Assembly (NCBI GenBank): GCA_026770705.1
Contig: JANJGN010000138.1
Location: 1,054,001 to 1,118,000, forward strand
DNA length: 64,000 bases
Direction: 5' to 3'
DNA from: Isurus oxyrinchus
Lineage: Eukaryota
The notes under the pieces: model-generated
What the model was told of the DNA's origin: nothing
Database searches by the model: none
What the model saw: the letters and a program-made list of their open reading frames with translations, nothing else
Shown here: positions 14,790 through 63,887 of the stretch, in pieces
Layout of the letters: each line of letters starts with the position of its first letter
How positions within the stretch are numbered: the stretch's first letter is position 1
Translations under genes and position numbers: made by a program

Positions 14790-15670
14790 TTCTTGATTGA
14801 TCTCAATAACCAAATACTGGATGTGCAAGGCATAGTTTCAGAATTTGAGTATGATGCAAGACTTGGAAGTATTGTGAACTTTGTGGTGATAATGATGGAC
14901 TTCAGGAGGATATAGATAGGCTGGTGGGATGGGAAGACTCGGAGTAGGTGAATTTTAATGTGCAGGAGTGCGAAGTGATACATTTTGCTGAAATGAACGA
15001 GGAGGGGTGACATAAAATGAAGGGCGTAATTCTAAATTAATGCAGGAGCAGAAGGACCTGGATGTGTATCTGCAAAAATCATTGAAGCTGTCAGGGCAGC
15101 TTGAGAAAGCAGCTATAGGCCCCGAATACTGGATTTATTAATCAGGGCATAGAGTACCAAAGGAACTAAGTTGTCAACGTTCATAAAATACTGGTTCAAC
15201 TTAAAAGAAGGTTTTGCAAAGGATTCAGAAAAGATTTACGAGAATGAATCCGAGGATGGTAGAGTTCAGATATGTGGATAGATGGGTGAAGCTGGGGCTG
15301 TTCTTCTTGGAGAAGAGAAGTTTGAGGGGAGATTATTTTAGACGTACTCAAAATCATGAGGGATCTAGATAGTTAACATGGTGAAATTGCTCCCATCGGC
15401 GGGAGGTTGAGAAGCCTAAACTGATTTCAAAAATTACCAGAGGCGACATGAAGATAAACTTCTTTATGCAACAAGTGATATGGTGTGGAAGCTACTGGCT
15501 GAGTGTGTGGTGGAGGCAGATTCAATTGCAGTAGATAATTATCTGAAAACATAATATTTTCAGGGCCACATGGAAAAAAGTGAAGGAATGGGACTGGCTG
15601 AGTTGCTGTTGCAGAGAACCGGCAGGCAGACACTGTGCTGAATGGCCTCCTTCTGTGCTATGACCACTAT
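14790..15670 (+). mobile_element. CR1 LINE 3' fragment
   Basis: gtgcaagggcatagtttcagaatttgagtatgatgcaagacttgga (KFADDTKLG relic); tail gaatggcctccttctgtgctatgac. Confidence 0.8.
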
Positions 15671-24945: not shown

Positions 24946-25782
24946 TTTCACCAGAGATTTCCTGGAGCAATACGTTTGTCAAAAATAGATACAAAGAATG
25001 CTTATTCAGCTTACAGCCACTATAGCTCGACATTCATTCTCTGGAACCATGGTGCGATTTGATACTCATTCCCTGAATAAAGGAAGAATATGGAGCCAGT
25101 CGTTCTTAACATTGGTTTAGTCACAAAACCCAGAGAACACAGGCACAAAGTTAATTTTCCTTCCATCCACACGGGTGGAAACCAATTATTTTATATGCTT
25201 AATAATATTGCACCACCATTTCTCCCAACTAATAAAAGAACCTTATAACTAGAGCATGCTCTTCAAGTGACAGGATTAGAACATTAAGTATGATAACCGT
25301 ACGTACTTCAGAATTGGTGTGCGGTCAAAGACAGGAGGGTGTGACTACAAGTGAGGCAAGTAACTGGATCCAGCAAGTAGAATTGGACGAGCCTCAGCCC
25401 TTGTGCTTGTCCAACAGGAATTAATTGCTTGCAGCTTACATAAAAGAGAGCAGTGACTACACCGTGGATGAATGCACACCTAAAGGGTCTCATTCCACGA
25501 GGCAGAGTAAAAGAATTGAAGTTAGCTGTAGAAGAGGACAGCATAGTCAGGCATATAGATACTAATCTTTGCAGCATGAGCTAAGAGCTGAAAGTCCTGC
25601 TGCCCGCAAAATGTCCGTTTTAAGGCTGGAGATGAACCTGGAATAGGAGGGGGAGGATACAATTGTTTTGATCCATGTGATATATCCCTTTGTGGCTCAA
25701 CATTAACTTTGCTTTTTTTTTAATGTTAACTCTCTTGTTAAGAGGCTTGGAACTTTCCAGGCCATTGTGCCCTGGGCAGCCA

Positions 25783-25854
25783 GTGATGGGGGTATAGTGG
25801 TAAGCATAGCTCCCTTCTAATTAATTGACCCGGGTTCGGTTCTCGGCCGCCGCA
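25783..25854 (+). pseudogene. tRNA-Gly(TCC)-derived pseudogene (anticodon now TCT)
   Basis: GTGATGGGGGTATAGTGGTAAGCATAGCTCCCTTCTAATTAATTGACCCGGGTTCGGTTCTCGGCCGCCGCA vs Gly-TCC GCGTTGGTGGTATAGTGGTTAGCATAGCTGCCTTCCAAGCAGTTGACCCGGGTTCGATTCCCGGCCAACGCA. Confidence 0.88.
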
Positions 25855-26496
25855 GTCTGTTCATTTCTAAACCCCTGAGATATGAAGTTCGCAGCTAAAT
25901 TTCTTCTGATTTGGTGAAACTTCCAAAAATACGAGCTGGTTTATTTTTTATAAAAAACATATTTCCAACCTCCACGTCTCATCCATTTAAAATGTAGCTT
26001 AGGTTTATTCCTTGTTGCTGATAATGAAAGGTTTCCTTGAACTGTGGTATGGAGCCAGGATAGAATGACTACGATTTAGTAAAATTCGCCGATTATATGA
26101 ATTTTTCTCCTCTGTTGTTTCCCATTTCTTATTTGAATATGGATTCCTGCACAGGGATTCTTTTATTGTTCAAAAAACGAGACACTGCTCAATTTGGGAA
26201 TCTGAAATAATGACTGTATTTGCTGAAATACTCATCTGTGCTCCGACAGCATCTGTGGAGAGAGGAAAGGAGGATTCACACTTCAGGTCGAATGAAGTTT
26301 TAACGAATAGACCTGATATCGGAACGTCGAAATTGCCAGAGCTACTAAGTTCTTCCAGTTCTTTTTTTCCATTTGAATCATGGAATATCAACAACACAGA
26401 AAGAGGCTATTCGGGCTGTCCATTCTGTGCTGGCCCTCTGAAAGAGCAATTCACCGAATGCTACTCTCTGTAATCCTGCAATGTTTCACTGTTCAT

Positions 26497-26704
26497 CCGA
26501 GTGCGGATTGATTCTATCAATATCAGTCTCTGGCACTATCTGTGATTGTGGAATTGATTCTGATGCTACCTGCGATTGTGGGATTCGTTCTATCAATGTC
26601 AGTCTCTGGTACTATCTGTGATTGTGGGATTAGTTACGTAAATATCAGTCTCACTTACTACCTGTGAGTGTGGTATTGATTCTGTATTTGTCAGTCTCTG
26701 ACTC
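26497..26704. repeat. 46-bp minisatellite, ~4.5 units
   Basis: Unit approximately GTGATTGTGGGATTGATTCTATCAATATCAGTCTCTGGCACTATCT. Confidence 0.85.
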
Positions 26705-28499
26705 ACGAACAATCAGCGTTCGGGTTGCACTAAGTAACTCATGTGCAGTTTTCTGCTGTAAATCAGCAACTAGAATCAACTTTTTCTGCAATTCACTTAG
26801 ATCATTATCTGAGCCAAAGGATTGGGATTGGGAAACGTTCACAGATCATTGAAAAGTGAGGGGCTTGAAGCTTTACCAACTCTAAATTGGCATCATTCCC
26901 TGCAGGGGATTTGTTGTTCACGAGCCCATCTTCACAAAGCAATCCTGCAGAAACATGGGAGGAATGAGGGAGGTAGTGATTTCTTGGGACTGTGCAATAG
27001 TTAATATCTGACAGGGAGACCCCAGATTCATTTAATCGAAGTGAACCACTCCGTGACTGAGAGCAATACCTAGCAATCATGTCCTGCAAGACTGCAGAGA
27101 TTACAACAGGGGAAATGGGCAATAATATGAGGCTTTGGATCACTCTCTGGCACTGGCCCTGAGTGTGTGATTAATAATGTATTTTTCTCCAGTAAAATAT
27201 CAGTGAGAAATGAGACAGCAACTTCTACCATTCCAATTGTACCTTCGTAAAACTGGATTGAACAATGTATTCTGCAATCGATACTTTGCCTGACTGTCTG
27301 TGTCTCATTGCCTGAACTCACTCTGACTTTATCTTTTACTCCGTCCTCTCTCACTTTTCTCCCTTGCCCTATAAAACAACGTGGGATATGCTTACTGAAG
27401 GGCCAGAGCACAACATTTGTATTTCCATATTAATTAAACATATTGCTGGTTTTGAATCATCTAATAATGTAAAATTAGACCTGTCTTAATCCAGCCAGAG
27501 CTATGATGCGTTTCAGCCCCTGAATCTGGGGACACCGTGAACAGAGCTGCAAAACTATAAATAACCCTGGAGAATACATAGCAGAGGCCGAGCGGAGTGG
27601 GAAGCCTATCCCTGGAACTGTCAGTCTGAGGAAAGTTTGTCCTGTGAATGTGCAACTGTGACCATTATGCAAGGGAGAGTGTGTGAAAGGGATTGGCGGG
27701 TTTAAATGATGTCCCTGTGCTTCTGTGTCTGCTCTCAGTGCCTGATTTCTGTGCCCCTCTTGTGTGAAACAAAATGATTTCCCTGCCATAGGATCACTCT
27801 GCTGCTAGCTCTGAAGTGAGAATAAAACGGGAAGATTGAGTTGATTTTGAGATTTCAGTCGAAAAGAAGAGAGCGTGTCAGCGAATGGATGAGACAGCGT
27901 GACCAGTGCAGAAGTGAAAGAGGTTTAAAACGAAACTGAGGCTTTTTCAGTGAATGAAGCCGTTTTCAAGAACAACCATTTTGGCACTCTGGAGTTTCCG
28001 AATTGCAATGGCTTTGGACAGTTTAACAGCAGAAAGGAACAAAATATTTCATGCATTAGGACACACAGTTCCCTCTAACTCCGAGTTCTGCAATCTCTCA
28101 CCGTTTATTCCATGTGCCTCTTTTTTGTTTGTCCTGCCAAAATGGTCGAACTCACATTTTCCTACTTTACACCCCATTTGTCATCTCTAATCACGTAACC
28201 TATCTATATCCTTCCATCCCCTTCACAACTAATTTTCCTACCTCCATTTGTTTGATCCTTACTTCCCCATCAACTTTGACGGTTGTTCAAGTCTCATGTG
28301 TCGCTTTTAGAAATGTTTCTGCTCAAGGATTGTTGTGAATGGGGAATTATGCCTGCCTGGTAAAGTTTGAAAGTAATAGCAGAGTGAATCACAATCAAGG
28401 AAGTATTTTGAAATATAAGCATTTCAACAAGGTCCATTCTACTGCTATCTCCCCGCATCCCTGCGCATTGATGGTTTTCCAACCATCATCTCATCGCCT

Positions 28500-29320
28500 C
28501 TTGCACCTGGACAGGCAGTGGGAATGCAGCCTATAGCTTGGAAGGTGGGTAATGGAGGGGTGGACTTTGCTCCTCCCAGCCGCACAAAGGTGGACACATT
28601 AAAAATCCATTGTGTGGTCCCGAGGCCACTTCCTCAGTACCTGCTGCTCCCAGGTGTATTTCCATTTCCTGTGCTGGTGTATGCCACGTTACTGCTTCTG
28701 ATCGGTAAGTGGAACAGCGCCATATGGATCAGGAGTGAGTGGGGTCGAGAATGAGAGAGATTGGGGCCTATAATGGAGTTTCTGGGGAAGGGGTGGGCAG
28801 GCTAGCATAGAAATGGGGAGGGGGGAGTGAGGCCAGCACGAATATAGGAGGTGGGAAGATGGAAGCTAGGCTAGCATGGCGTTGGCTTCAGAGGGTCCGG
28901 CGGTGGGGGTGGGGGGGTGGGTTTGTGGGGGCAGGGGTGAGCAGTGAGGGGGTGGGGGGAAGAATTGGCTTGAGGCAAACATCGTGTTTTTCTTCGGATT
29001 TTCTTTGAAATAAATGGTCCATTAACTTGATACTTCAAGGTAAGATAATTCTCTGCTTTTAACTTGGAACGTGATCTTTACGGAGGTGGGGTACATGGCT
29101 ACTGTAATTTGGAACCTCATCCACACGATGAGGCCTCTGGCAATGCAGTACTCGGCCCTGTGCTGAGTCAGCCTGCATCGTGCTACCTGGGCTAGAACTT
29201 GGACTCTCTGCTTTCTCGATGCAGGGCAAAAAAAAAATGACCACAGGCCAGTCCTCATCACAAAGGGACCTGCAATATCTCCAGCACATTCGGGAGATGT
29301 TCCTCGCTACATATTTTAAT
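28500..29320 (-). pseudogene. Possible RING/B-box (TRIM-like) gene relic
   Basis: Across frameshifts: LEILQVP..GLACGHFF / LPCIEKA ... AMYPTSVK (AMCPVSLK in the paralog), Pro-rich linker, CVHLCAAGRSKVH. Confidence 0.35.
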
Positions 29321-29803
29321 CTCAACTGTAGGAGCCTCTTCAAATGCTGCTCGATATTTGTTCAAACATTATAATAGTTTGCAACATTTCTCCGTACTAT
29401 CTCCGGACATAGAGAGATGTTTTCTTCAACTACGTTTATAGTGGACAGACTGTTTCCCAGTCAAGAGTAGACAGACTGTTTTTACCTGCTTGAAGTCTAA
29501 TAATTATATCCAGCTAAAAATGGCCTAGAAACATTTGCATTCCAATCGAGATCACAAAATATGGTACAGTCACCCAAATTCTTCTCATTAAGTGTTCCCA
29601 GATGTTTTTGCTTCCCGCCACTAATTTTCAGTCCTTTCTGTCATTGACAATTCTCACTCCATCAGTTGCTTCTTACCACACTTCTCCGCTTTTATTATCA
29701 TCTGTTACAGCCATATCAGGGCCTCTCAAATGGATTTTAGTGACCTTATTGCTGCCGGGAGTTCGGCGCTCCCAGCAGAGCGAGCCGCAGCGAGCCGAAA
29801 GTT

Positions 29804-31074
29804 ATGTCTGGTTTTCTGGATCACGGAGCTGCTGACCAGGATGAACCGCTGTCTGCCATGAGTGAGCAGAAGGATAGAGAGGAAGGTTGGATGGGCTTGG
29901 TCAAATGGAAGGGAAGAGGGAAGTTCTTCGGGAAAACTTTGAATGTAAGTGGTAGGATTTTTATTTTCTTCTGTTATAGCGCATAGAAGCTGAACTGGAG
30001 CCCATTTGACAGGGTGAAACTAAACAAATAAATAGGCCTGGGACCATGCCAAACAAGTTAGAATGTAAAACTGAGCAGAAAAATGTTTAAAATTCAGCCT
30101 GCACAATTGTTTCTTCAATACTTCCGTTTATGCGAGTGTCTACAGGACAAACTTGATCATTTCGTAATGAACTAAGGCACATGATTTATGCTCTTATCTA
30201 CACAGCGCAGCCCAAGGCAGTGACCATTGCACTGTTAAAGATTCAGATACTAATATCTGCGATAAGCATGATATAAAGAAACTTTTAGTCAATCGTATTC
30301 ATTGTGAGGTGACTGATTTCTGGGACATTGCAATATTAATTTTGCAGAGTTAAGGAAGGAGCTGTTGACCTGCAGCTGGACGCTGCTGCTGACTGTGCTA
30401 CAGGAGCGAGCGCACAGAAGGTGAGGAATGTGATGACCAAGGACAGTGTGCAGCCCCCTGCCACTGGACTCCATGACACTGGGAGTGGCCCTCCACAGGG
30501 AAAGGGGAAACAGTGTTATTCACCCGGGCCTGGGTTGGAGACTAGCCGAATGCTGTGTGCAGGAATAATTGCCAAGTTGGAGGACGAGGAGCAGGAGGAA
30601 CCAGCCACAGCTGGAAACGTGTCAACCCCCACCAATGGAACCGAGCAATGATCAGCATTGATGATAACGGGCACTGCACACAGTGCCAGCGGAAAGGAGC
30701 TGAGTGAGCCAGCCAGAGGGAAGAGGAAAGGCAGCATCAGGCTGAGGCTCAACGTTACCCTCAGTCAGAATGAAAACAGCCATATCAGGCCAATGAGGCA
30801 CAGAGCTGCTCACCAGCTGCATTCGCAGCCAAAAGAGGCTGAGCTTCACTTGGTAACAACCGAACATACATGGGTGCTAAATGGACAAGGACTGCCCAGC
30901 ATCACAGATCCAACACCATTTTACCCAACTCCATACATAACAGGGGACAGACTCCGAGGTGTGGTAGATGGACAATCGCACTTGGCCCTACGAGAGACTT
31001 TGGGTGAAATGGAAACCCTGAGGCAGGAGAATGGTAACCTGCGTACAGAGAACGAGAGGCGCCGGCTCAATTGA
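29804..31074 (+). pseudogene. Unknown decayed spliced gene with C-terminal coiled coil
   Basis: Exon-like 29804-29944 (…GLVKWKGRGKFFGKTLN|GTAAGT); acceptor tttgcag at 30347; ORFs 30421-30651 and 30658-31074 share a frame, split by TGA (TGG in the paralog at ~42886); ends ETLRQENGNLRTENERRR. Confidence 0.45.
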
Positions 31075-32534
31075 GCAGTTGGGTAAGGACACTGCACTAC
31101 AGTGTATGATTGCTGCACATTATGATGTATTGTTTCAGGGACCTGAAAACGGTGAACTGTGAACTTGGAACTGACCATACCTAACCCTGGTAGAGATTTG
31201 CATTTGGATGTCATGCAATGAATGTGTATCAATCCTGCCCCTCTTTAACCATCCCACCCCTTAACTGCTGAATTTATAGCCATTCGATTTTTCTGGGTAG
31301 AAATATAGAGCAATGTGTGACTTTATTCTTTCCATTGAAGATGTGAATCCTGGAAATCTGCAGTTTATGTGGCACAATGTTGATCTCTTGAAGGGTAAGG
31401 GTAGCTTTGACAGCAGGCCTGAAGTTGAAAAGGGGCTGAATACTTGTGGAATTGTCTCTCCGTTCTGTGAACTTAGGTCACACTGAGAGGTCACATCATG
31501 CCCTCAATCTTGATTTTCCCGTGAACATGCTCACAAGCAGTGGATCAGTGGGACCAGGGTTTATGCCAATTGGATGGCATCTCTCTCTTGTAATGCAACT
31601 GGATTAGCAATCTGATAAATCAAAAGTAAATTGTTATCTAAACAATTCGAACCAGACTGAAGTCACTACACAGAGTTTCTGCGACAAACATTGGACTGGA
31701 GATCACCGACAGCCCGCCATACAAATGTGTTCTGTACCCTCCTGACTCAGATAGCGAGCTCAAAATTAATTGCATCTGGAATACTGGAAGCAACGTTCAT
31801 CCACATAACTATAATGCACAGTTATTCATCGTATTTATATTGTATACAGTGTTCTCATATATCCGACTCACTCAAATGAGAATAATTGTAAAAACAATCA
31901 ATTATATATAAAACTGCAAAGTGCAATTGTGAAAATGTGTGAGACAGAAGGGCAGGTAACTATCGAAATTTTGGTGAGAGAGAGAGACAGAGTCACCCAT
32001 TGCTTCCAGAAGAGTGGATGATTGAAAATGTTACATCCAGATTCAAAAAAATGGGATAAATGTTAAACTGCCTATTGCCGGCCAGCCTGTTTCACGCATA
32101 TGGCGGCGAAGCTTAGACAAACAATGATCCTGAAATAAATAAATTGAAATAGAGAAATAGATCAGAAGCCTGGCGATCACCGACACTGGCTGATCTCCTC
32201 CAAGTTTAGTGTGAGTCTTAAATGCGCAGATTTCACTATTAGCACATTTTCTCATTGATAAATGGAGCCATTAGTCTCACGAGGAATTGTCCTGACCAGG
32301 GGGCAACTCAATTTTTATTATTCAACAATTATGCCATTTTTTGGGTTATTAAGCATTATAAATCCAGATTCTAATTGAAACATAGTGAGTTCACTGAGAG
32401 AAGGTATCCATTCATCTTCGCCTCTGATGTAACTGAAGGAAGGCGGCACCCCTACAGTACCACATTGAACCCACCTCTTCAGTTTCATTTGTGAATGTGA
32501 GAAGCTAACACTAGGTTTCTTTACTTTGGTTACT

Positions 32535-32663
32535 TTGGGAAAAGGCTATAGGCCAAGTGCTGGTAAATGGGGTTAGATAGGTAGGTCAGGCACTACTCAC
32601 GTGCCGGTGCAGACTCGATGGGCCAAAGGGCCTCTTCTGCTCTGTGATTCTGTGATTCTGTGA
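32535..32663 (+). mobile_element. Short CR1-tail/HE1-type SINE 3' end
   Basis: gcagactcgatgggccaaagggcctcttctgc followed by (tctgtgat)n terminal repeat. Confidence 0.75.
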
Positions 32664-33189
32664 AAATCTGATAGATGGTGAATGCCATTCATATTCCTCT
32701 CTGTTCCTCCTCGCCAATCTTTCGTTTTCTTTTATTCTAACTCTATTTGCCCCTTGAACTCCCTCCTAAACCTCCTCAATTTTTGTCACTAAACCGCAGC
32801 TCAGCGCCTACATTTAACCCACTGACTGTCCCATAACTGAAGTCTTTCCTCATGATGGCAGGAGGGATTCAGTACATATTTTTTATAATGTTCAATGGGT
32901 AAGATAAGTCCATAAACTACTGCCACTGACCCAGTGTCACAGTCCAAGAATTAAAGCTAGAGATTTCCCTGCGGGAATGGGAAAATAATTCTAAACACAA
33001 AGGGAGCTAGAATTTCTCTACACGGCAATAAATGTTTCACCCATTGATTTATTTGAAATCTTAGATTCAAAGAGTTTTCTTAAAAGAGATTATTACGAAA
33101 TATGAGGGAAAGGCGAAAATATGGAGGTAGTCACCAAACAAACAGAAAAAAAAAACAGAACATGCTCCAGCGAATAAAGGGTCTCAACA

Positions 33190-37615: not shown

Positions 37616-37874
37616 ATTTTATTCTCTACAAATTGACAACCGTGCTTAATGCCGATCTGGTCTAAAATTCTGTATTCCCTCCCTAAACTACTCTACTTCT
37701 ACAGCTCCTTCTGATCTTTAAGATGTTACTTAACAGTTTCCCCTTTGACCAAGCTTTTGTCATCTGATCTAATATCTCCTTCTGTGGCTCAGCATCATGT
37801 TTGCTTTATTTGTCATTATAACCCACTTGTTAAGCCTTTTGTGACTTATGGCTATGTGCCAATATCAGTATTTA

Positions 37875-37947
37875 TCGATGGCGATACAGTGGTGAGCATA
37901 GCTGCTTTCCAAGTATTTGACCCCCAGTTCGATTCCCAGCTGCCGCA
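37875..37947 (+). pseudogene. tRNA-Gly(TCC) pseudogene
   Basis: TCGATGGCGATACAGTGGTGAGCATAGCTGCTTTCCAAGTATTTGACCCCCAGTTCGATTCCCAGCTGCCGCA; paralog of 25783. Confidence 0.85.
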
Positions 37948-48519: not shown

Positions 48520-50620
48520 CTGACTGACCGCGCACCAGCTGGAACATTGGAACTACCGTATTTGTAAATTGAAAGCTCCAGGTTACCGGCGAGCTGGAAG
48601 GGAATGAGTTTTCCCCAGAGCTGCCTCATTGTTCCGATCTTCACAAAGCTGCTCAGCAACTTCAACGCTCCCCTTCTGAATGTTGAAAATATTCCGCTGA
48701 AAGCAAACCTCAAGCTGAAAAACCTCTCGTCATTAGCAGGCTGACATCTTATCCAATCACCCTTTTTCTATTTATTTCATGAGATATGGATATGTCTACA
48801 CGACCAGTATAAGTTGCTCATCCGAAATTGCCTTGAGAAGGATTGCTACATTGACACAGTGAAAGCACTTCAAACATTGAAGTAAAATTAGTTTTGAGAT
48901 GTTGCCCTGTCCTCTGGTTGATGCAAGTGAAGCTTGCAATTGGAACTGAATTGCGAATGAGAAGTAAGACGGTCACAGTGTTTACGAATTATGACGGGTT
49001 CTTTAGCAAGAAATGACCGAGAGCCTGTTGAATTTTAAATTTGGTAGTAAAGGTCGGGGAAGTTGCAAGAGCAGGAAACTGAAATATATTTCCACCTGGC
49101 TCTCAGTAAGCGGCTTTAGGCAATTAGAGCAAGTTGCGGAACCAGTAAATGAGATAACAAATAACAGGCCGATTGCCCTTGGTGATTTACAAATCCATCC
49201 CTGGAACAGTCATACAGAAAAGCTACTAAACCGTGGGGAGAGCTCACAGTTATTTTGCGTTGGGTTTACCCTCTGTTGGGTGCCTTCGTGGCTACATTGT
49301 CAGACAGAGATTGGAATTACGACAAGTTAGACGGGAAAACATTGGTTTCTCAGCGACCTAGTTTATCCGTTGCTTACACGTAGCTCAGCAATGAAGTAGA
49401 CGTTGCGCAGTTCAGTATTTTACTTCGTTCCGGTCATATTTGAGAACAATTAACAACAAATTAGGAGTATATTGTGCTGCTTTTTAAAAAGACATCTCGA
49501 AGCAGCAAATGCCTTTTTGGCCTGGCCAGTATCTGACTAACTATTGAGAAATTTGGTAACTTTGCTGACAGATGCAGTATTTGCGTGAAATTGTTGCGAA
49601 GCGAGTTATTGTTGTCGTGCAGAGGGCTGTGAATAATTCCTTCGAAGTCGAATAAAACTCGTTGGCCCGTACGGGGATCGAACCCGCGACCTTGGCGTTA
49701 TTAGCACCACGCTCTAACCAGCTGAGCTAACCGGCCAGCTGAAGCATTCCACTATAGTATCTGGTTTTCAAATTCAACTGGCAGTGAGTGGAGGATTCAG
49801 CATTATTCCTTGCTGATTGATTGTGCACAGTCTGGAACTCCTGTTTGTCCAGTTGAAACTTCATGTAACCAGCGAGCTGTGAGTGTATGTTTCTCCCAGA
49901 GCTGCTGAATGATCCGACCCTCAAAAAGCTGTTCAGCCAGATAACTTCTCCTTCTTGTCAATGATGAAAATAATCTGTCCAAAGCAAACCTTCGGCTGCA
50001 AAATCTCCCGTCATCAATAGGCTGATATCTATGCAATCTCTTTTCTATTTATTTCTTGGGATGATGGGCATGTCGCGCATGACCAGTGCAAGTTGTTCAT
50101 TCACAACTGCCTTAAGAACGATGCTAAATTTAATAAGAATAACCACTTCAAATACTGAAGTAAAAATAGCGTCGAAATGTTGCCGTATCTCCAGGATTTT
50201 GGAATTGAAGCTTGTGGATTTCATGGTAAATGCAAGACGGAGGCTTAAACGAGAAATTACCGAATGCCTGTTGAAATTTGCATTTGATGCTATCATTCAG
50301 GGGAGTTGCAATGTCAGGGAACTGAAATATATTTCCGCCTGGCCCTTAATCGATGACTTAAGGCGATCAGAGCAAATTGGGAAAGTGGTATGTAACAGGC
50401 CAACGGCCCCTGTGATTGATGTATTTACCTGATTAACAGTTATGCAACAGCGCCGCTTCCCAAGTCCCAGAGCAACATTGTGGGGGGAGCTCACTCTTGT
50501 TTTGACTCGCGTTTACCCTCTTCTGGCTGCCTTCATAACGAAGCGTTCGAGATTGGTTGGAATAAGACCGGAGCGGCATTGATTTCTGAGCCCAGGTTGT
50601 TATGTGTCACCAATGGGCAG
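48520..50620. repeat. Tandem ~1.28 kb duplication around tRNA-Ile
   Basis: 48589 gcgagctggaagggaatgagttttccccagagctgc vs 49872 gcgagctgtgagtgtatgtttctcccagagctgc; 49073 ggaaactgaaatatatttccacctggc vs 50317 gggaactgaaatatatttccgcctggc. Confidence 0.8.
49663..49736 (-). tRNA. tRNA-Ile(AAT)
   Basis: Minus strand GGCCGGTTAGCTCAGCTGGTTAGAGCGTGGTGCTAATAACGCCAAGGTCGCGGGTTCGATCCCCGTACGGGCCA; canonical cloverleaf; TTTT terminator downstream. Confidence 0.96.
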
Positions 50621-51040
50621 TTAAAATGCAAAATTTTCCAATCCGCTGCACTGTTTTGCTGCAAACATCACTGGGAATTGTTTATCATGCTGTATGACAG
50701 AGCGAACGGAGAACTTACATTTTAAAGAGAGCCCGAGCACCGAGGTGAATCCTGAAAACATCAGCGTTCGGGCTGTTTGGGTGATGGATTTGTACGAACC
50801 AGATTTCTCTCCTGAAAAAAAGCCACATGCATATTTAGCCGTGCTCTTCATGGCACGTATTAGCTATTTGGCAAAATATATAGGGGGAATCTCCATGAAG
50901 TTGTCAAGCAACGAGAACAGTGGTTGTGTTTGATAGTGAGGAGGTTTGAAAGCAGGAAGTTATCAATTGACTGGTTAGATGGTCAGAAAAGTGCCAAATG
51001 GAATTCAAACCGGGGGAGAGCGACGTAATAAAGCTGGGAA

Positions 51041-51954
51041 AACCCTTTCGTGTACAAACTCGTTTCCATCTGTTTCAGATGAAGTTACATTGTTTCATAA
51101 TTTGCCATTGTGAGACATGAACTCTTGATAATCTTTTAAATGAAACCAATTGAACTTAATCAACAAAATTGGGATAAATCAGGCACAGCTCCTAATTCAG
51201 GTCAGCTGTAAAACCAAGGACAAAATTTAAAGGAACCTTACAAACTTTAAATCAAAATGTGATTAAAGGGCTCAACAAAACACCCCAGTCCCCGCGGTGC
51301 CCACTGAACATGGAAGGCCTCGAGCGTGTCAGCAGACACCGCGTGCTCCCTCTCCAGGGACATCCGGCAGCGAACGTAGCCGCGGAAGAGGGACAAACAA
51401 TCGGGCGGGACTCCCCCGTCGATTGCCCGCTGCCTGGACCTGTTAATGGCCAACTTGGCCAGGCCCAGGAGCAGTTTCACGAGGAGATCCTCCTCCTTCC
51501 CGACCCCCTTCCGCACCGGGTGCCCATAGATCAGGAGCATGGGGCTGAAGTGCAAACAAAACATCAATAAAAGGTTTTTCAAATAACTAAAAAGGGAGTG
51601 CAGCCTACAACACCCTATATATGCATGGTCCATCGACTCCACAAGACCGCAAAAAGCGAACGTGTCCTGAAAGTCCGTGAACCTATGCATCCTCTTATTA
51701 TACGGGAAAGTTACATGCTTTCATAATTTGCCATGGTGAGATTTGAACTCTTGATCTTGGGGTTACAAGCCCAGTACCACAAGCACATGGATATATAGGC
51801 CAAATCTAAAAGGCAGATGTAACTCTTTCGAGTACAAACACATGTCCATCTGTTCCTATTCAGATGAAGTTACATTGTTTCAAAGTTTACCATTGTGAGA
51901 GTTGAATTCTTGAGGTTACAAACCCAGTACCATAACCACATGGCTATTTAGACC
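51041..51954 (-). mobile_element. Dimeric tRNA-derived (Thr-TGT-like) element flanked by a ~14-bp TSD
   Basis: Two ~150-bp units GG(T/C)CTAAATAGCCATGTGGTTATGGTACTGGGTTTGTAACCCCAAGATCAAGAGTTCAAATCTCAC...; flanks aataaagctgggaa (51027-51040) and aataaagctgagga (51955-51968). Confidence 0.75.
51130..51707 (-). mobile_element. Tx1-clade non-LTR retrotransposon, 5'-truncated (ORF2 C-terminus + 3' UTR)
   Basis: FCGLVESMDHAYIGC zinc-knuckle relic, LHFSPMLLIYGHPV...DLLVKLLLGLAKLAINRSR...FRGYVRCRMSLEREHAVSADTLEAFHVQWAP, typical of Tx1 ORF2; 48-bp direct repeats at 51082-51129 and 51708-51755. Confidence 0.9.
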
Positions 51955-52681
51955 AATAAAGCTGAGGAGATCAAACAAGTCGAAGGGAATACACAATAAA
52001 TGACGAGAGTATTGGGAGGTATAGAGGAAGTAATGGACATTGGATCGAATCTCTACAGATTCCCGAATGTTACTTGAAAGGCCAATGAGTTGTTTAAGAA
52101 GTCAAGTAGAAACATTTCGCTTATTCGACGAAGCATAACACATACTAACAGGGAGGTTATGGAGGTACTTTATCAATTCTTAGTTAGGCCACAATTTGAG
52201 TACTGTGTGCATTCCTGGTCACCTCATGGAAATTACCAAATTACAAATCGAGGGTGGAGGTCCGGCATGATGAATGTGGATATCCTGCGGTATCTGTTGC
52301 TAAAAATGGGAGCCAACGTTAGACAAAACTCATCATCCCAGATTGAGCAGTGACCCTCATCAATATTCCACAACCCGTGCTCTGACCGGAGGGATATATT
52401 AACTTTTAACGGATCCACACAATTTAATTTTGAAGCCCGCTGAACTGAACAACACAGCAGAATCTTCTATGTATCTGTTGCATTTCACAAAATAACAATC
52501 CACACCCCTCCTCTTGCCAATGTGCTTGAAAGGAGTGTTATATGTCAACATTTAAAACCAAGCTTCACATGGAGCTACTTAGGAAAATGACGAACTGTCT
52601 GACCAAATAGGTAGATTTGAACGAGTGTTTGAAAGAAGAGAGCGTTAAAGGGGCTCAGAGCTTAAGGGACGGAATCCCTGA

Positions 52682-55238: not shown

Positions 55239-58200
55239 CAAAGAATGCTGACTTTTTCAAGAGAACAGAAGAGATTGATATGTTTAATCGGTTTGCAAAA
55301 AATATAGATTTTTTTCTCGAAATTTCAGCATCCACGATCATTTTTAGGAAATATTTCTAGATTCCCAGCTGCTTTAAGTGTGATAAATTCTTCTGGACTT
55401 TTCCCTTGGTGGGCCGAGACACTGGCGCTGTGAATCCGTGCCAGCGTTATGTGCTGATTCAACTCCATTCGTCCCGCCGGCATGTGCAGTTTCTCCCAAT
55501 TTAATCTGACACTAGGTTCTAACAGGGTAGAAACCCCGATCAGACCACCCTTCTCAAGAGATCAGAAACAGGTAGCATCTCTGAAAAGGGGGGAGAAAAG
55601 ATGCAGAGAACGACACTAGGTGAATGTTTCCTTCAGCGAGCCAGCAAAGACAGGACGGGCACCTTCTCTGCTTTACCCTTCCTGTAATTATATAAATCTA
55701 AGAAATCAGAGCTGAACTCCTAAAGTGACCAACTAAACTCCGGAATCATCATTGCTTCCAATCCAGTGCCAATGTAATGCTGGTGATTTGAGCAGCGCCT
55801 GTAAGAATATGAGAAATAGAGGCAGATGTATTATGTGTTTCACGGCTTCACAAAAATTCACGAACTTTCAGGCTGATCTGCTGCCTCAATTGTACCAACC
55901 TGAGAATTCTCAATTCGCATCGTCAAACAGCGCAATCACTTATAAAGAATTCCTAATACGTTTGCGATCCCAGAAGTGGTGTACAATCATGTTTACAGCA
56001 AAATGATGCTATGTAATTCACGACATTGCATTACAAAACTCCTTTGTACTTTTCATGCCTGTTGCATAGATCCGTGTAGCAGCAAATTTAAGGCAGTTGT
56101 GTAAATATCTATTGGAATGAGTGGTACTTCGGATATGACAGCCTGGAAGTTGAGATGTTAAAATTATTGTTTGTACATGTGCACTGGCGGATAGTGAGCG
56201 GTGCACCTGAAAACCCAAATCTTTTTGCATCAATTTGTTCCCCTGTTTCTCACCACCTAGGAAATACGCCCATTGCTCATTTGGTGCCTGAAATATCTGC
56301 TCTTTGTGTACTCCCCACACCCTTAATGACTGGCTCTGCATCGACTGTTCAGCTGGAGGCACTGAAATCATGTACTTTACAAGCGTCGTCCAAAAGGGTA
56401 CGTCACAGCCCAGAAATTTGTCGGCGACAAATAATTCACTGACTCAGAAACTAATGCTTTCCCCGTATAACGTTTTTGAATTAAATTTAATTCGGTTTCA
56501 CTTCTTATAAAGAACACTCAGCACAGCGCAAATACTAGAGAAAAGCAGGGAGAACTCTCCACAGTGTTGTCTTCTCTTCTGTCAAGCGTTTCTGCAAGCG
56601 ACTGTCCCTGAGATCAACGCATGCATGACGACTATGGTTGGATTCTTTTTCCTGCACGTTAGTTGTTACTATATTTGCTATAAACACAACAAATCTCTGA
56701 CTGAAAGCCAGGTAGAAAGATCATCCAGTTCCCTCACCTTGTAACTCCGCCGAATGCTGGGAGTGAATTGAAAATCCAACGCACAGTCGGTGGACCCACT
56801 TGATTTTGCGCTGAATCACCTGTCACTAATTTAACTAACGTCCCGACATGCGGTGCCAACTTCAATGGTTGGTGCAGCCATTTCTCCAGCCCCCTCAGCT
56901 CCTGTATCTCATTTAGCATTGACTAGTATAGCTTATATCACCTTTCCTCACTCTACCTGAAAAAATGTACAACTTCACTATTCTCCGCATTAAATATCAC
57001 TTCATGGCATCTGTTCCATCAGCCTACCTGTGTCCTCTGGAAGTTTATTATTATCCTCCTCTGAATTTTACAACACTTCTGTGTTTTGCGTCATCCACAC
57101 ATATTGAATTGGTGTCCTCCACGTTGACGCCTCGGTCCTATGTTGAAGAAAAAACAGCATCAATGGCACTGCTGATGGCTGGAGAATCCCATTATATAGC
57201 AATTCACCGCGGCTCTTTGTTTCCTCCTGTTCAGCTGACTTTGTACCTATGCTCCACTGACAGTCTTCTTCCCAAAACAATCAAGCTAACTGAATGCAAT
57301 CTGCTTTTAACACATTCAGGCATGTTTTCCGTAAAGAATCCGCTCTTATCCATGTGGTAATACATTTTGTCTCTGGATATCGTTTCCAAAAGCTCTTCCA
57401 CCACTTGAGTTTAAATTGGTGCGTGTGTGGTTTACAAAATGATAATTAGTTAAATTTTGTGAAGAATGGTATAACATTTGCAATTCTAAAATTCTCTAGC
57501 ATCGTCCGTTATAACTAAGCAGGATTGGAAATTTGCGGCCCACTACCCTCCACAATTTCCAAACTTTCTTTCCTCAACACCCTGCCTCTGAACTAATCCA
57601 GGTGAATTATCAACATTTAAGTAAAGCCAGGTTTCTAATGCCTCCCCTGTCTACAATTGTCGTCCATCCAATTTCACAACTACCTCGAGTTTCATTCTGC
57701 CTTTGGCCGTGTTTTTCTTTCTTGGCAAACACGGTATAATCATCTGGTTCCAGGCGTGAAATTCCGTTTTAGTCCCTATTCGGCCCGTTCCTGTTTTCGT
57801 AACCTTTTATATTTATATCCATATAGTAAAAAAAAATCATCTGCTAGTCTATTCTCCCATTCACCCTTTACCTCTGAAATCTCGTAAGGCTTCGTAAATG
57901 TACCCGTAATATCGTTTTTTTTTTAAGTGTGTGCGACGGATAACAGGAAAAGAAAATGGCAGAGAAAGCGGAGAAAAACATCTGTTTTTACAAAATTAGT
58001 GGTTGATTGAGATGTCTTTAAAATCTTGTTTTTTTTTTCTGGAAAAAAGTCTCAAATCCCTTGAGACGTTCGTAGATTGATCCATGGTGCCCCTCTTTGT
58101 GTAAGTGCATGCAGTGGATAAAGACAGAGAGGAAAAGAAAATGTTATATCGTGCACGACTTCTGACCTGACCACAAAGCAGTTATCAATCACGTAATATG

Positions 58201-58381
58201 GCAAACCCACTGGTGCATTGGGATGAACTGAAAAGGGTGCGATACATAAGCATACCGGTGCACGTTATTTTCAAAGGGAATTTCGATCCTGTTATGCTTC
58301 TTTATGTTCACATTCATTCTATATGCTTCCTCACGACCTGAAAATGTTCAGCTCTTTGCCTGATTAATTTTAAGTAAATAA

Positions 58382-58456
58382 CAGCACCATTCAAATCTGA
58401 ACTCAGGATCGTCTGCATGACTATATGTAAGACATGACCCAGTCTACCTCACTGCT
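58382..58456 (-). pseudogene. tRNA-Thr relic (paralog of 568-642)
   Basis: gcaccattcaaatctgaactcaggatcgtctgcatgacta at the paralogous position; very degenerate. Confidence 0.5.
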
Positions 58457-59328
58457 AAGTCCCAAACAGCTATGTTTTGAACCGTATTTCACTATTTTGC
58501 TGTAAGTTCATTGAGAATTCTTCATCTGTTACGGGGCTGTAGGGCAGCACGAAATAAGAATTTTGAGGAAGGAGCAATTGAGGTGGACATTCAACCAAGA
58601 AGTTCTGCACAGTTTGTGAAGCCGTGAGACACATGACACACCTGTCCCGATTTCTCATGTTGTTGCAGACACTGCTCAGAAGATACATCAGGATTATGCT
58701 AAGCTAGGAAAGGAAGGAGCACTCTTTGACCAGTGGGCTCTGGAGTTCAGCAGGTTACATCTGGAGTTAAATTTCATCATCCATGATTCGTATTAGCATA
58801 CAATGGGGTCAGCCGATAAATAGGCTATTTGGAACATCCTGTCAGTGCTGGCTCGTTGAAGGAGAAATTCGCCTCAATCAATCCACCGGCCATCTCCACG
58901 ATCCTTACAAAATCTTTAGTTTTATTTTCAGGGATTAACTGTTTTTTCTATTCTCATCATTATAGAAGAATGATCTGATCGAGGCTTCTAACCTGTTAAA
59001 GTGAATTGTTAGTTTAAACACGGAGAAGCCATTTCACCCGGCAGGAAGAATGGGGTTGAATGTTGACTTTTTGTTTTGGTCACAGTTCCACAGCGCAGGT
59101 GCCAGCCAAGCAAGAGGAATGTCAGGAAGCACTCTTCACACAAGGAGTACCTGGAAACCCAGGAAGAATTTAAATTGATCGAGGCTACCACAATTGCAAG
59201 AGAGTGGATCCTTTGTTGGAAATCAAAGTAACGCTGCCAGTTCCTCAGCTCCCCGTGAAGAATTCAGCGTCCAAGGCTGTTTCATTTGGTCGTTTCACCG
59301 GGCGTGAACATCTTAAGCCGAAAGTGAA

Positions 59329-59401
59329 CAGCCAGACATGGACTTATCACTTGAACGCTCAGATTAAAATTCTGGTGCCCTAACGAAAGAGCTGCCCAGT
59401 G
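59329..59401 (-). pseudogene. tRNA-Lys(TTT) pseudogene retaining the anticodon arm
   Basis: Minus strand ...GCACCAGAATTTTAATCTGAGCGTTCAAG...AAGTCCATGTCTGGCTG; paralog of 1561-1621. Confidence 0.7.
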
Positions 59402-60046
59402 AGAGCAGCCATCACTACTTAAAAAGAGGCGCCACAAGCTTTTTATGCATTCCCTTGTGAGGTGACTCATCTTCTGCAGCTCCTTCCTCCTCTCAAGCAG
59501 ACCAGCAGACTCCCTTTGGCTTCATTTTACAATTATTCTAATTTGCACCAACTACTCACTCCTGACACATGGCGTGTGACCTCGCAACTGTTGTTAGCAG
59601 TTATCTGCACTGGGCATTTAAAGCTTTGAAGATTGCATTAGTTTCGGGAAGATATAATAGGAGTCGGAAGCTACAAAATGAATAAACAATTTCTAATGGT
59701 GTTTGTAGTGGGAACGTGTGATGACATCACATTGAAATTTAAAAAGCTTCTAAATAGTCCAAATCATAAATTGTAGGGATGGAAATATATCTGCCAGCCC
59801 AAGGATTTCATCAAAAAAGCACCAACATTTATCTCTCTCCGTTCGTTCCTTCCTAAAGCGCAGTAACATAAATCATTCAAACTTTGCCCACAGTTATAAC
59901 CGGCAATATTTTGAAATGTTCCTCCCTCATGACTTCCCAAGGAAACAATGATCCTATCTGGCTTCATTATATAGTCGCCTAATTATCAATGCTGCCTCTG
60001 GACGTCAATGTTTTTATTTAAAGCCATGCATCGACTAAATCGATAA

Positions 60047-60120
60047 AGACGCATCTGAGAATTAAAAGCAGAATCGCTTTTTCATTAAACAAGCGCTTTA
60101 ACCATCTAAGTCACAACGCC
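60047..60120 (-). pseudogene. tRNA-Thr pseudogene (paralog of 2323-2396)
   Basis: Minus strand GGCGTTGTGACTTAGATGGTTAAAGCGCTTGTTTAATG... Confidence 0.7.
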
Positions 60121-60659
60121 AACACGGACTAGAGCTTTGCAATGTAAACTTCCAAATTGTATCCCACTACTTTGCTGCAAACATTATTGTTCATCTATTA
60201 TTGGGCTGTATGAAAGTCCGAATTGAGAACGTTCATCTGCAAAGGGCTTTCAAAGCTTTGAAGATTCGATTTCTTTCGGTGAGATATTAAGTCACATAAA
60301 TTCCAGTGAGAGGTACAAAGGGAGAGGGATTGATTTTGCGAATTGGGAAACTGCTTCACATAGTGCCTGTTGTGGAAATGTGAAGTCCTGGCAGGTCCCG
60401 CAGATGCTGTTGCTGTATTGTAGGTCAGATAGCAGACTCACCCTCCATTAATTGAAGATCAACCTCATTTCTGGAGTCAAACACAGATCACTGGTTCTAG
60501 GTCTTTCCTTCCGACCATGGATTGGTCAAAATGTGACTCCAGACACAGAGCTCTAAACTGTCCCCCTGAATTGGTCTAGCAAAGCACTGGGTCTTATTAA
60601 AATCGCAGTTGCAAAGAGCAATTAGGGTGTGGGGAAATGCTGGTCTCAGCAGTCACAGA

Positions 60660-60709
60660 TCACAGCCCTTCCCTTTGTCCATTTTGTGGCTCTGAAAAGA
60701 GCCGTTGTT
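60660..60709 (-). promoter_or_regulatory. Replication-dependent histone 3' stem-loop plus histone downstream element
   Basis: Minus strand AACAAC-GGCTCTTTTCAGAGCC-ACAAA (stem-loop 60688-60703) then purine-rich AAAGGGAAGGGCTGTG. Confidence 0.9.
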
Positions 60710-60731
60710 AGATATAGTGCTGAAACCAGTT

Positions 60732-60818
60732 TTAGGGTCGCTCCCTGCGGATGCGGCGGCACAGCTGGATATCTTTTGGCAAGATGGTGGCACGCTTTAA
60801 GCGGATGGAGCACAGGTT
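60732..60818 (-). pseudogene. Histone H3 C-terminal fragment
   Basis: NLCSIRLKRATILPKDIQLCRRIRRERP*, in frame, followed by the stem-loop. Confidence 0.88.
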
Positions 60819-62310
60819 TTACACAGGAGTACTTTTTTCCTGTGCAAGCCCTTTTATAAATATTCCTATCTTTCCAGTAAACAGTTGGAATTTATATACA
60901 ATATTACTAAGCTCTGAAGCTGCTCCCGCAACCCCCCTCCCCTCCCGCCACATAAAACCAGGAAACTAAATGACAGCATCCATCTATTTGTTCCATGTGG
61001 CTGCGGTGTAATTTATTAAAATTACATCTCATAGCACCAGCCAAGTGGTGGGATGGTTTTAGCTCTGAGTGCTGTGATCAAACATTTATCAATCCATTGC
61101 TTATTGACTTCTGAGAATGTTCAATTTATAGAACAATCCAGGTTTTCCCTTAAGTGGACTTATGTAGATAAAATTACCATGTCTCTGCGAGCTAACTGAG
61201 AATGACTTAATCTGCACAGTGATAGTGCAAATAAATGTTGAGCCTCATGCCAGATCAATAGCCATGGAAATTAAGCCGGGAGCATGATGGGTGGCTGTTT
61301 TGGTGGTTCCAGAAAGTAGCATATGTAATAACCACGTGGCAGAGCCAGAATGCTACTCCATTGTACTCAGTGTCTCATCATAGGGCTGTACCCTCATCCT
61401 GGGGACCAATCAGTGAAGATTCGCTGTGCCGTCTCCAAATCACTGGTATCTTTCCTTAAAGATGCAGATCAAGACTGCAAATAATATTAAAGGTATGATG
61501 TCACCAAAGTCCTTTGTTTTTTAGCAAGACTTATTAATTCTTGAACTCAAATCCCCTTACAATACAGTTGAAAATGCACTGTCTTCAAATAAAAAAAAAA
61601 ATGTGTCTAAGTGAGGTTATGAAAAGCTGCATAGAAGTCGTCCAAAGGCAACATATAGGAACAATTAAATAAAGGAGACCGAACGAAGCCCGGCAAAGGA
61701 AATAAACAAGGAAGAAGATAAAGAAGGATATTAAGAACTGAAATTGATGAACTCATTTTTGAGTTCAGGGGCTGAAGCGTCCTGAGACAAAAGATGATCC
61801 ACTTTTCCATAAGTTTTGATTTTGGCGAGGCCATTTATTCCCTAGGTTCTGTTCTATTATTTAAAGATATCGTGGCAAATTGGGAGCCAAATTGCTTTTG
61901 CCATGTACGTCAATAAATTTTCTAATAAAACATTATCGATCGCAGCTTTAAAATAAAGCCACTTATTAATATGTACAGAACGGAGCTGTGAACTTCCAGC
62001 ACCCTTTCTGTCTCTATTGCTTCCTAATTTCAATGTTGAAATCTGTCTATTTGATGTACCTGTGTTCCTTATTCCCAAATTCCAAGCAAGCGGAAATAGT
62101 TTCCTCAACTGACCATATCCGCACCAGAGGTCCTAGTACATAAATCATTAACGTAGCTTGCATACAAGGTCCAGCAAGTGATTAGGAAGGCAAATTAAAT
62201 GGTGGCTTTTATTGAGGGAGAATGGAAGTTTTAGTGCAGCTGTACAGAAGATTAGTGAGCAAACATCTGGAAAACTGTGTACAGTGTTGGCCAACATATT
62301 TTTTAAAAAT

Positions 62311-63239
62311 CGTCATGAAACGATAATATTTCTCGTAATACTATTGTCGGTTTATATGTGTGAATGTGGATGTTCCTGCCTCAGTGAATGAAGTAATTTA
62401 ATTAGAGTCAGATAGACTGCAGGTTTGAAATTATCGAAATAATGTAAGAGCAGGAAGGCATCTGAAATGCTAATAAGTAAATCTGGATGAGGTGCAGGGT
62501 GTGAAGGAAATTTGCATTTTCAGATAAGTGGAAGGTGGTTGGGTTTCAAATGGATACATTTGCATTTTTGCAACTAACAAGATAAACAGGGCAAGGTTAT
62601 TATGTTTATTTTTCCTAAAAATAAACAGGCTTTATTGACTTTCTGAATTATTTTTACAAAACGAGAAAATTAAACTTTCAAAGTCCTGTAGAACAATGGA
62701 ATTTAGAGATTAGAATGAGAGAAACGTATATACAAACGGATGAAAGACTGTATAGAGAGCGTTGCCATGTCACATTGAAAGGTACACCATGTGAAGCAGT
62801 CCTTGGGGAACAGCCACTTTAGCAGACGTTTGCTATTTATACAAATACAAAGAGTTGCGTTGCAAGGCTTTGGTAATCCAATGTCGAGTATTTGGTGTGG
62901 TACCTTTGCATCATTGATTTTGTATTTTCAAATCTATTTTAGACTGCTGCCTTATAGGGGGAGTGGAGTTGGCAACCTGTTTAACTAAGAATTTTGGTAA
63001 ATACTACGCCTAAATAACCGTGTAACTTTAATATTGTGTGTATTTATCGTTTTTTTTCCTTCTGTTAATAAATGTTTTACGATAATTAAAAATCCCTTAA
63101 GGTGTTATTGGATTCAATGCCTCGGAGTTCAGTGCAAAAGCCTTCTCGGAAAAAATACAAATTGCCTGAAATTTTGTGATAAATGGCCAAGTTTCCCTTG
63201 TGCATTTGGTCCACCTGGCATACATCACCTGTCATACCA
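62311..63239 (+). mobile_element. Solo LTR inside CR1 (paralog of 4592-5528)
   Basis: cgtcatgaaacgataatat...gtcatacca at the same CR1 position. Confidence 0.65.
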
Positions 63240-63887
63240 AATGCATAAGAAGCTTTGCAGAGAAAGGTCAGTCAATTCTTTCCGAGGATGACGGGTCTAA
63301 CTTATTTATGCAGTTTGGTCCTGTTTCCATTGGAGTTGAGAAGAAAGCAAGGAGACCTTACTGAATCATACCCGGTCCCGAAGGGACATGATTGGATGGA
63401 GTAGGGGACAGTGTAGAAAAAGGAGAGGTCTCCATTTGAAGAGGAAATACGAGGCTTTTTTACTCCTCGTGGAGCCACGTTCTGTGTAATTTTACTTTTT
63501 GCTGTCTCCATGAACATTTTCTTTCACCCAATGCCCGGAAATTAGGCGTTTGCATCGCGTGGATGTTCTGAATGTTCATGACACACAAAAGGCTCTTTCT
63601 CACTTGACAAACATTTTCTTCCACCTGCTCTGATGGGAATTGAAATTCAGCGGTAAATATGATCAAACAGTTTATGGCTTTTTTTTTGTAAAATGCACTT
63701 TTTTTAACTTCAGCGAACATTGCAAATACAATCTAACCGACCAGTTCACTTGTTGATGTCCTTTTCGCTTTCTTTGATGTATTTCATGACTCTGCTGGGT
63801 GCTCTATTACATGCATCCAGTACTGCCTGTGTTAAAAAAATAATAACCACAATCCTATTGCTCATTTTGCACGCCACGTCGGTATGA

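Follow-up and report, generated by a model that had tools for sequence, protein, structure and literature searches.

Tx1 families that prefer other transposable elements (Mariner, Harbinger or LTR elements) or microsatellites have already been published (Kojima 2015, PMC4494074). The criterion of target specificity in that study was more than 20% of the flanks in one repeat. The crocodilian Tx1-Mar with its relatives, and SINEU, resemble the locus described here, with its putative preference, in that the Tx1 elements prefer a transposable element (Mariner-N4, Harbinger, LTR) and small-RNA heads are found at 5′ ends. However, the crocodilian families have U1/U2 snRNA heads, poly(A) tails and target-site duplications (TSDs) of ~10–16 bp, and the body text names no SINE target (PMC4494074). 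According to the available text of PMC1950540 and PMC1919474, Xenopus Tx1L in Tx1D is also a Tx1-type APE LINE in a non-autonomous mobile element. Its target is a DNA transposon and its specificity was shown biochemically, whereas the host here is tRNA-derived and the specificity is putative. Keno (U2), Mutsu (5S) and Dewa (tRNA-Leu spacer) are LINEs in multicopy small-RNA loci, to which the present case is comparable; Dewa occupies the spacer of real tRNA arrays, whereas the LINE described here interrupts a degenerate tRNA-like head (available text of PMC3706591). APE-type LINE duplications are typically 10–20 bp in the available part of PMC6895275. The same source describes the rotifer element R9, a site-specific LINE that also makes a very long duplication (126-bp stagger), but in an rDNA target.

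In cartilaginous fish, tRNA-derived heads are found in the shark elements HE1 and SacSINE1 and in SINE2-1_CM, as far as their available descriptions go. SacSINE1 is 463 bp long and the unit described here ~135–150 bp, a comparison of length and description rather than of sequence. For the whale shark, the available part of PMC8455134 reports Tx1 and no full L1, and a repeat library exists as its supplementary file 20. Further background is given in the available parts of PMC4640811, PMC8869645, PMC3747384 and PMC2746220. In searches of an open-access literature library, Tx1 was linked neither to a SINE-like target nor to a duplication of 48 bp, and no paper was listed on a Tx1 family of sharks that sits in SINEs or tRNA-derived repeats; the likeliest venues for such reports are subscription journals and repeat-database reports, which lie outside that literature.

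Anatomy of the nested locus

The window, meaning the whole stretch of DNA analysed, is 64,000 nt from Isurus oxyrinchus (GCA_026770705.1, contig JANJGN010000138.1, 1,054,001–1,118,000, forward strand). The region was read on both strands. A CR1-type LINE contains two tRNA-like units, and the second unit contains a Tx1-type LINE piece. This three-layer nest is real and cleanly bounded (Table 1). Read on the minus strand, unit 1 (51954–51821) is followed by an 18-nt linker and the first 96 nt of unit 2; then comes the LINE piece, after which unit 2 is completed by its last 89 nt. The preliminary description of this DNA had proposed the same nesting order, and both repeats and the boundaries were recovered.

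Table 1. Features of the nest, with positions counted from the first letter of the window
Feature	Position	Strand	Evidence
Decayed CR1-type LINE ORF2, part upstream of the insert	50934..51026	+	empty-site reading runs through the junction
Left copy of the outer direct repeat (14 bp), probably the TSD of the entire insert	51027..51040	+	12/14 against 51955–51968
Unit 2, downstream part (U2b): T-arm region and tail	51041..51129	-	77/89 against unit 1
48-bp repeat, copy at the LINE 3′ end	51082..51129	-	43/48 against 51708–51755
3′ UTR of the Tx1-type LINE, 117 nt, without poly(A)	51130..51246	-	comparable UTR of the relative P0012
5′-truncated ORF2 C-terminus of the Tx1-type LINE, zinc-knuckle region to stop	51247..51706	-	protein homology
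Unit 2, upstream part (U2a): entire tRNA-like head and ~21 nt of tail	51707..51802	-	Rfam tRNA model
48-bp repeat, copy at the LINE 5′ end	51708..51755	-	its edge is the final base of the 5′ arm of the tail stem
Linker separating units 1 and 2; its T4 run is a possible weak Pol III stop	51803..51820	-	
Unit 1: tRNA-like head with a 6-nt deletion, and tail with a long stem-loop	51821..51954	-	
Outer direct repeat, right copy	51955..51968	+	
Decayed CR1-type LINE ORF2, part downstream of the insert	51969..52227	+	

The split host LINE is presumably CR1, a label taken from peptide motifs and not from a repeat library. The chance of finding the outer repeat at both boundaries is ~2e-4 when 49 registers are allowed. 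The insert and one outer copy were removed in silico, and a collinear, single decayed CR1-type ORF2 reading was obtained. A weak alignment (E 0.59) of this empty site with a remnant at 14884–15030 spans the junction, and its part downstream of the junction matches a remnant near 4.5 kb (tblastx E 7.5e-5). The claim that a CR1-type element is split by a ~14-bp direct repeat was thus confirmed by the 12/14 identity and by the flanks that are collinear once the insert is removed. The length of the repeat fits the usual TSD range of APE-type LINEs (~10–20 bp), and the tRNA-like insert is flanked by this probable TSD in a collinear CR1. The outer repeat was also considered as part of the unit, which was rejected because one copy is needed by the CR1 frame. 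Miniature LTR elements make duplications of 4–5 bp. A tRNA-bearing element of this kind was rejected because the outer duplication has 14 bp. A plus-strand RNA primed at an L1-like site was rejected as well, because the antisense transcript would have to end exactly at the head start. By eye, the linker end (51803–51812) resembles the flank preceding unit 1 (51955–51965), a likeness that might stem from annealing when the 5′ junction of the outer insert was formed.

The two units lie head to tail on the minus strand inside the outer repeat, as described previously, with identities of 73/89 and 77/89 and a tandem period of 153–159 nt. The head of unit 2 was aligned full-length with the Rfam tRNA model (model positions 1–71 at 51729–51800) at 12.5 bits, against a gathering score of 29. 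TGT is found at the anticodon position in both heads. Of the earlier assignment to tRNA-Thr(TGT), the anticodon stands; at this score only the anticodon speaks for threonine. The parent tRNA could not be fixed because the head of unit 2 differs from the tRNA-Ile gene of the window at 35 of 74 positions and from the tRNA-Asp gene at 40 of 72. The B box is exact in U2a (51748) and has one mismatch each in unit 1 and U2b, and the A-box scan was too permissive to count. Unit 1 begins at head position 1, and its tail folds as a long stem-loop (z −2.7, with 1 of 200 shuffles as stable), the only one of six folded stretches below z −2. With the stem position taken from this fold, unit 2 falls 4 nt short of a complete terminal stem, and it closes with neither poly(A) nor a simple repeat. 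The unit tail has no family in Rfam and no match to the Tx1 UTR or elsewhere in the 64-kb window. In the bacterial and archaeal genomes a 20-nt unit motif gave 1 match, limited to the motif, which is chance. No second unit copy was found in the 64 kb (best other score E 0.66), and because of this a SINE, a satellite and a small array cannot be told apart from one locus.

A second decayed SINE-like element with a tRNA-type head lies at 43836–44150 (+). Its body may resemble that of Deu-domain SINEs. Its head weakly resembles the unit head, with a score of 37 that was reached by 0 of 2000 shuffles. No kinship is claimed, because this head was picked after the fact and another stretch of the window scores 36.

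The Tx1-type LINE piece and the inner repeat

The LINE piece has a stop-free frame of ~151 codons that is 60–66% identical to four database proteins. The homology begins within a few codons of 51707, in the middle of ORF2, and runs to the stop. The copy is 5′-truncated with an intact-looking 3′ end, and the earlier identification of a truncated ORF2 end of the L1/Tx1 group holds. The named matches are gene models of white shark and epaulette shark that carry such fragments, and the shark-like source assumed in the preliminary description holds as well. The Atlas neighbours are chordate clusters with a zinc-binding RT domain (zf-RVT), and their cluster names are generic. Pfam gave nothing for the fragment. 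The copy differs at 19 of the 90 positions where three relatives agree, part of which will presumably be family divergence; one of them is the first knuckle cysteine, which is changed. P0002, a longer relative that includes the RT end, reaches human L1 ORF2p with an E value of only about 1e-6, against 1e-63 to 1e-83 for unnamed full-length APE-RT-zinc proteins. P0138 is a weak full-length match (31% identity, E 7e-5) in which the APE endonuclease, RT and C-terminal zinc knuckle are all present, and P0002 is linked to it at E 3e-78. The long-protein search gave no match to a protein named Tx1. Apart from the distance to human L1 and the whale shark record of Tx1 without a full L1, which are indirect, the label Tx1 is taken from the motifs. 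The piece likely belongs to Tx1, judged from a C-terminus from which the RT is absent.

The 3′ end was compared with P0012, a frameshifted relative of another family with ~69% identity, which reads through a 135-nt UTR to a similar terminal peptide in the same frame. The 3′ UTR here has 117 nt, or about 123 nt in the comparison with P0012, with ~2 nt of uncertain origin at its junction, and its end matches that of P0012. Because the UTR length and the terminal peptide in the same frame are similar, the 3′ end of the LINE appears intact. P0012 is the only relative whose 3′ flank can be read, and this flank is not the unit. As P0012 represents a different family, this shows only that the wider LINE group is not confined to the unit as a target. 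No second Tx1-type piece is present in the 64-kb window. In the bacterial and archaeal genome collection none of 424 pattern matches to the LINE protein was confirmed. Traces of the unit or the UTR were sought in all 157 stored proteins, and only chance-level matches of 4–30 residues appeared among the best 40 of 218 rows; P0012 was the one useful read-through among these proteins.

The inner repeat is exactly 48 bp long and 43/48 identical on an ungapped diagonal, with random-level identity on either side. For comparison, the TSD of Tx1L is reportedly about half as long, and R9 belongs to a lineage with a restriction-like, not an APE, endonuclease. The chance of such a match is ~1e-20 for random sequence. 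However, a third homologous copy exists in unit 1, and therefore the similarity alone does not make the 48 bp a TSD. In the tRNA fold, the repeat begins in the variable loop near position 46 and takes in 27 nt of head and 21 nt of tail. The preliminary description gave the 48 bp and their position correctly, but its start at the B box has to be moved to the variable loop, 7 nt ahead of the B-box core at 51748. Because of this start, the upstream U2a keeps the whole tRNA-like head. At its other edge, position 51708, which is homologous to 51867 of unit 1, the repeat closes with the final base of the 5′ arm of the tail stem. This agreement with a stem edge may be fortuitous, since several edges of that kind exist in the unit. 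Both edges of the repeat meet the LINE ends to within 1–2 nt, and U2a and U2b together rebuild one unit without loss. When 51717–51718 are read in the LINE frame, these two U2a-specific bases yield a histidine that is found there in related ORF2 proteins; they are possibly microhomology at the 5′ junction, or chance.

Possible histories of the nest

A history of two insertions in sequence is proposed, in which the order, the RNA intermediates, the staggered cut and the target preference are our reconstruction. First, RNA from the first base of the tRNA-like head would have read past the weak T4 stop into the second unit. A LINE enzyme would have copied this dimer RNA, slightly clipped at its 3′ end, into the dead CR1 with a 14-bp TSD. 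Second, a Tx1-type LINE would have nicked unit 2 in the variable loop of the tRNA and copied only its last ~577 nt. The cut in the second strand would have lain 48 bp downstream, where the 5′ arm of the tail stem ends, and 48 bp would thereby have been duplicated. The LINE family probably prefers the unit or tRNA-like DNA. We regard it as probable that the 48 bp is a TSD from a staggered cut. The joint reading, with two retro-insertions, a genuine 48-bp TSD in the second and a LINE family that prefers the unit, is put forward more tentatively. These degrees of confidence are judgements and were not computed.

We rank the TSD first, since no unseen parts have to be assumed and the LINE ends lie at both edges of the repeat. 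The divergence of the repeat, ~5% per copy (pair CI 3.5–23%), fits a LINE piece that lost a knuckle cysteine and was counted for the two-step history, as was the start of unit 1 at head position 1. In addition, the only Tx1-type piece in the 64 kb lies in the only unit locus, which is 0.45% of the window. This coincidence favours an association of LINE and unit, with a figure that is post hoc because the locus was chosen from a genome scan for being nested. The flank of P0012, a member of another family, counts against the preference. The joint reading of TSD and preference also takes in the prior that many Tx1 families prefer a repeat (PMC4494074). By analogy, the nest works like known Tx1 elements living in other repeats, and from one copy the membership in a target-specific family is only putative.

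Several observations stand against the two-step TSD. The length of 48 bp is well outside the norm of 10–20 bp for APE-type LINEs. Four of the five differences between the two copies form adjacent pairs, which would be odd for point decay of once-identical copies. Moreover, the LINE frame stayed open in only ~12% of simulations at 5% divergence and in 45% at 2%, under an assumed indel rate. Within the repeat, 5 of the 48 columns differ between U2a and U2b, and unit 1 differs from the two at 9 and 7. U2a and U2b are the closest pair, but they are not significantly closer (5/48) than unit 1 and unit 2 are outside the repeat (11/81; Fisher p 0.78), and the likelihood ratio of equal age against a later LINE insertion is 1.5 for equal age. 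The TSD that had been asserted from the start is kept as the simplest reading and is unproven on these counts. Taken alone, the window is compatible with three histories that the divergence cannot separate: a true TSD, a trimer that lost sequence at a junction, and a chimera made by template switching.

The same two steps with a real long TSD could have been made by a LINE family without preference for the unit. Such a chance landing agrees with the single copy, with a nested locus selected from many windows, with the unrelated flank of P0012 and with the lack of a second case in the window. It requires, however, two rare things at once, a target of 0.45% of the window and an outlying TSD length, and is considered unlikely, although it is placed first among the alternatives.

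Placed next, and also unlikely, is a chimera made in one step. A Tx1 transcript would have read into a downstream unit and been primed at the CR1, and the enzyme would then have switched to a 3′-clipped dimer RNA. Only the 14 bp would be a TSD, and the 48 bp would be an overlap between two RNAs. Crocodilian SINEU copies have repeatedly gained small-RNA heads at the 5′ end, and U1/U2 heads are found on Tx1 families (PMC4494074). At the present locus the three pieces are about equally diverged, the paired differences could have been inherited as variants from two source copies, a stem boundary marks the end of U2a, and the two bases giving the histidine are a possible microhomology. On the other hand, this junction match is just two bases, a read-through and a switch to the same repeat family are both required, and a donor LINE sitting in a unit would still be needed.

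A trimer or array fragment is ranked lower again as an improbable history. Here the LINE would have entered a third unit and ~105–110 bp would have been lost at the 5′ junction, namely the tail of unit 2, the linker and the head of unit 3, so that the 48 bp would reflect periodicity. The tandem units with their period, and the failure of U2a and U2b to be significantly closer than independent units, are consistent with it. An unseen third unit and a deletion are required, however, and no other pair is as close over the 48 columns as U2a and U2b (5 differences, versus 7 and 9). Finally, transcription of a master copy of the whole 914 bp (dimer and truncated LINE) and its insertion as one SINE-like element, as the preliminary description had suggested, is very improbable: a single outer TSD encloses everything, the pieces are similar in age and Tx1-linked SINEU elements exist (PMC4494074), but ten T4–T5 runs on the sense strand (nine in the LINE piece, one in the linker) should stop Pol III, and Pol II read-through would need clipping exactly at head position 1.

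Beyond the two-step history, a shark Tx1 family specialised on a tRNA-derived repeat, with a variable-loop nick and a fixed 48-bp stagger, is a doubtful proposal. If it is true, each insertion would rebuild a complete tRNA-like head with A and B boxes directly upstream of the LINE. The target would be left whole, and a Pol III promoter would come to lie in front of the LINE end. Should the repeat be moved by the same enzyme as well, the pair would form a closed loop: the LINE would disseminate the sites where it lands, and new SINEs with Tx1 tails could arise directly. Provided that targeting and the 48-bp stagger hold across copies, the known Tx1 targets would gain a SINE-like repeat, and the duplication of an APE-type LINE would exceed the usual length more than twofold. 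The placement of the second-strand cut by such LINE enzymes is described as an open question in the available part of PMC6895275, and a fixed cut at a stem boundary, if real, would give a direct handle on it. Otherwise the three layers are dead elements nested in an ordinary way. What deserves further attention is the length of the duplication and where it lies.

Neighbourhood of the nest

An intact-looking tRNA-Ile(AAT) gene lies at 49661–49737 (−), 1.3 kb from the nest, and an intact-looking tRNA-Asp(GTC) gene at 45519–45592 (+). A decayed Asp-like tRNA copy may be present at 25792–25848 (E 0.35). A histone 3′ stem-loop, closely preceded by a broken histone-like C-terminus, was found at 60662–60780 (−), and a second histone-fold fragment at 42057–42446 (−). 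Judged from these remnants, the region is a putative decayed histone and tRNA cluster. Two old local duplications have ~70–77% identity (25680–33028 with 37772–46653, and 205–5906 with 57999–63628). A 46-bp minisatellite is found in both copies of one duplication (26559–26698 and 38602–38952) with different copy numbers. An old repeat with a period of ~1.24 kb (47929–50534) surrounds the tRNA-Ile gene, and the tRNA is left in only one of its units. A fragment of a rhodopsin-family 7TM receptor lies at 20790–21176 (+), and 20859–20981 has an inverted copy at 48129–48249.
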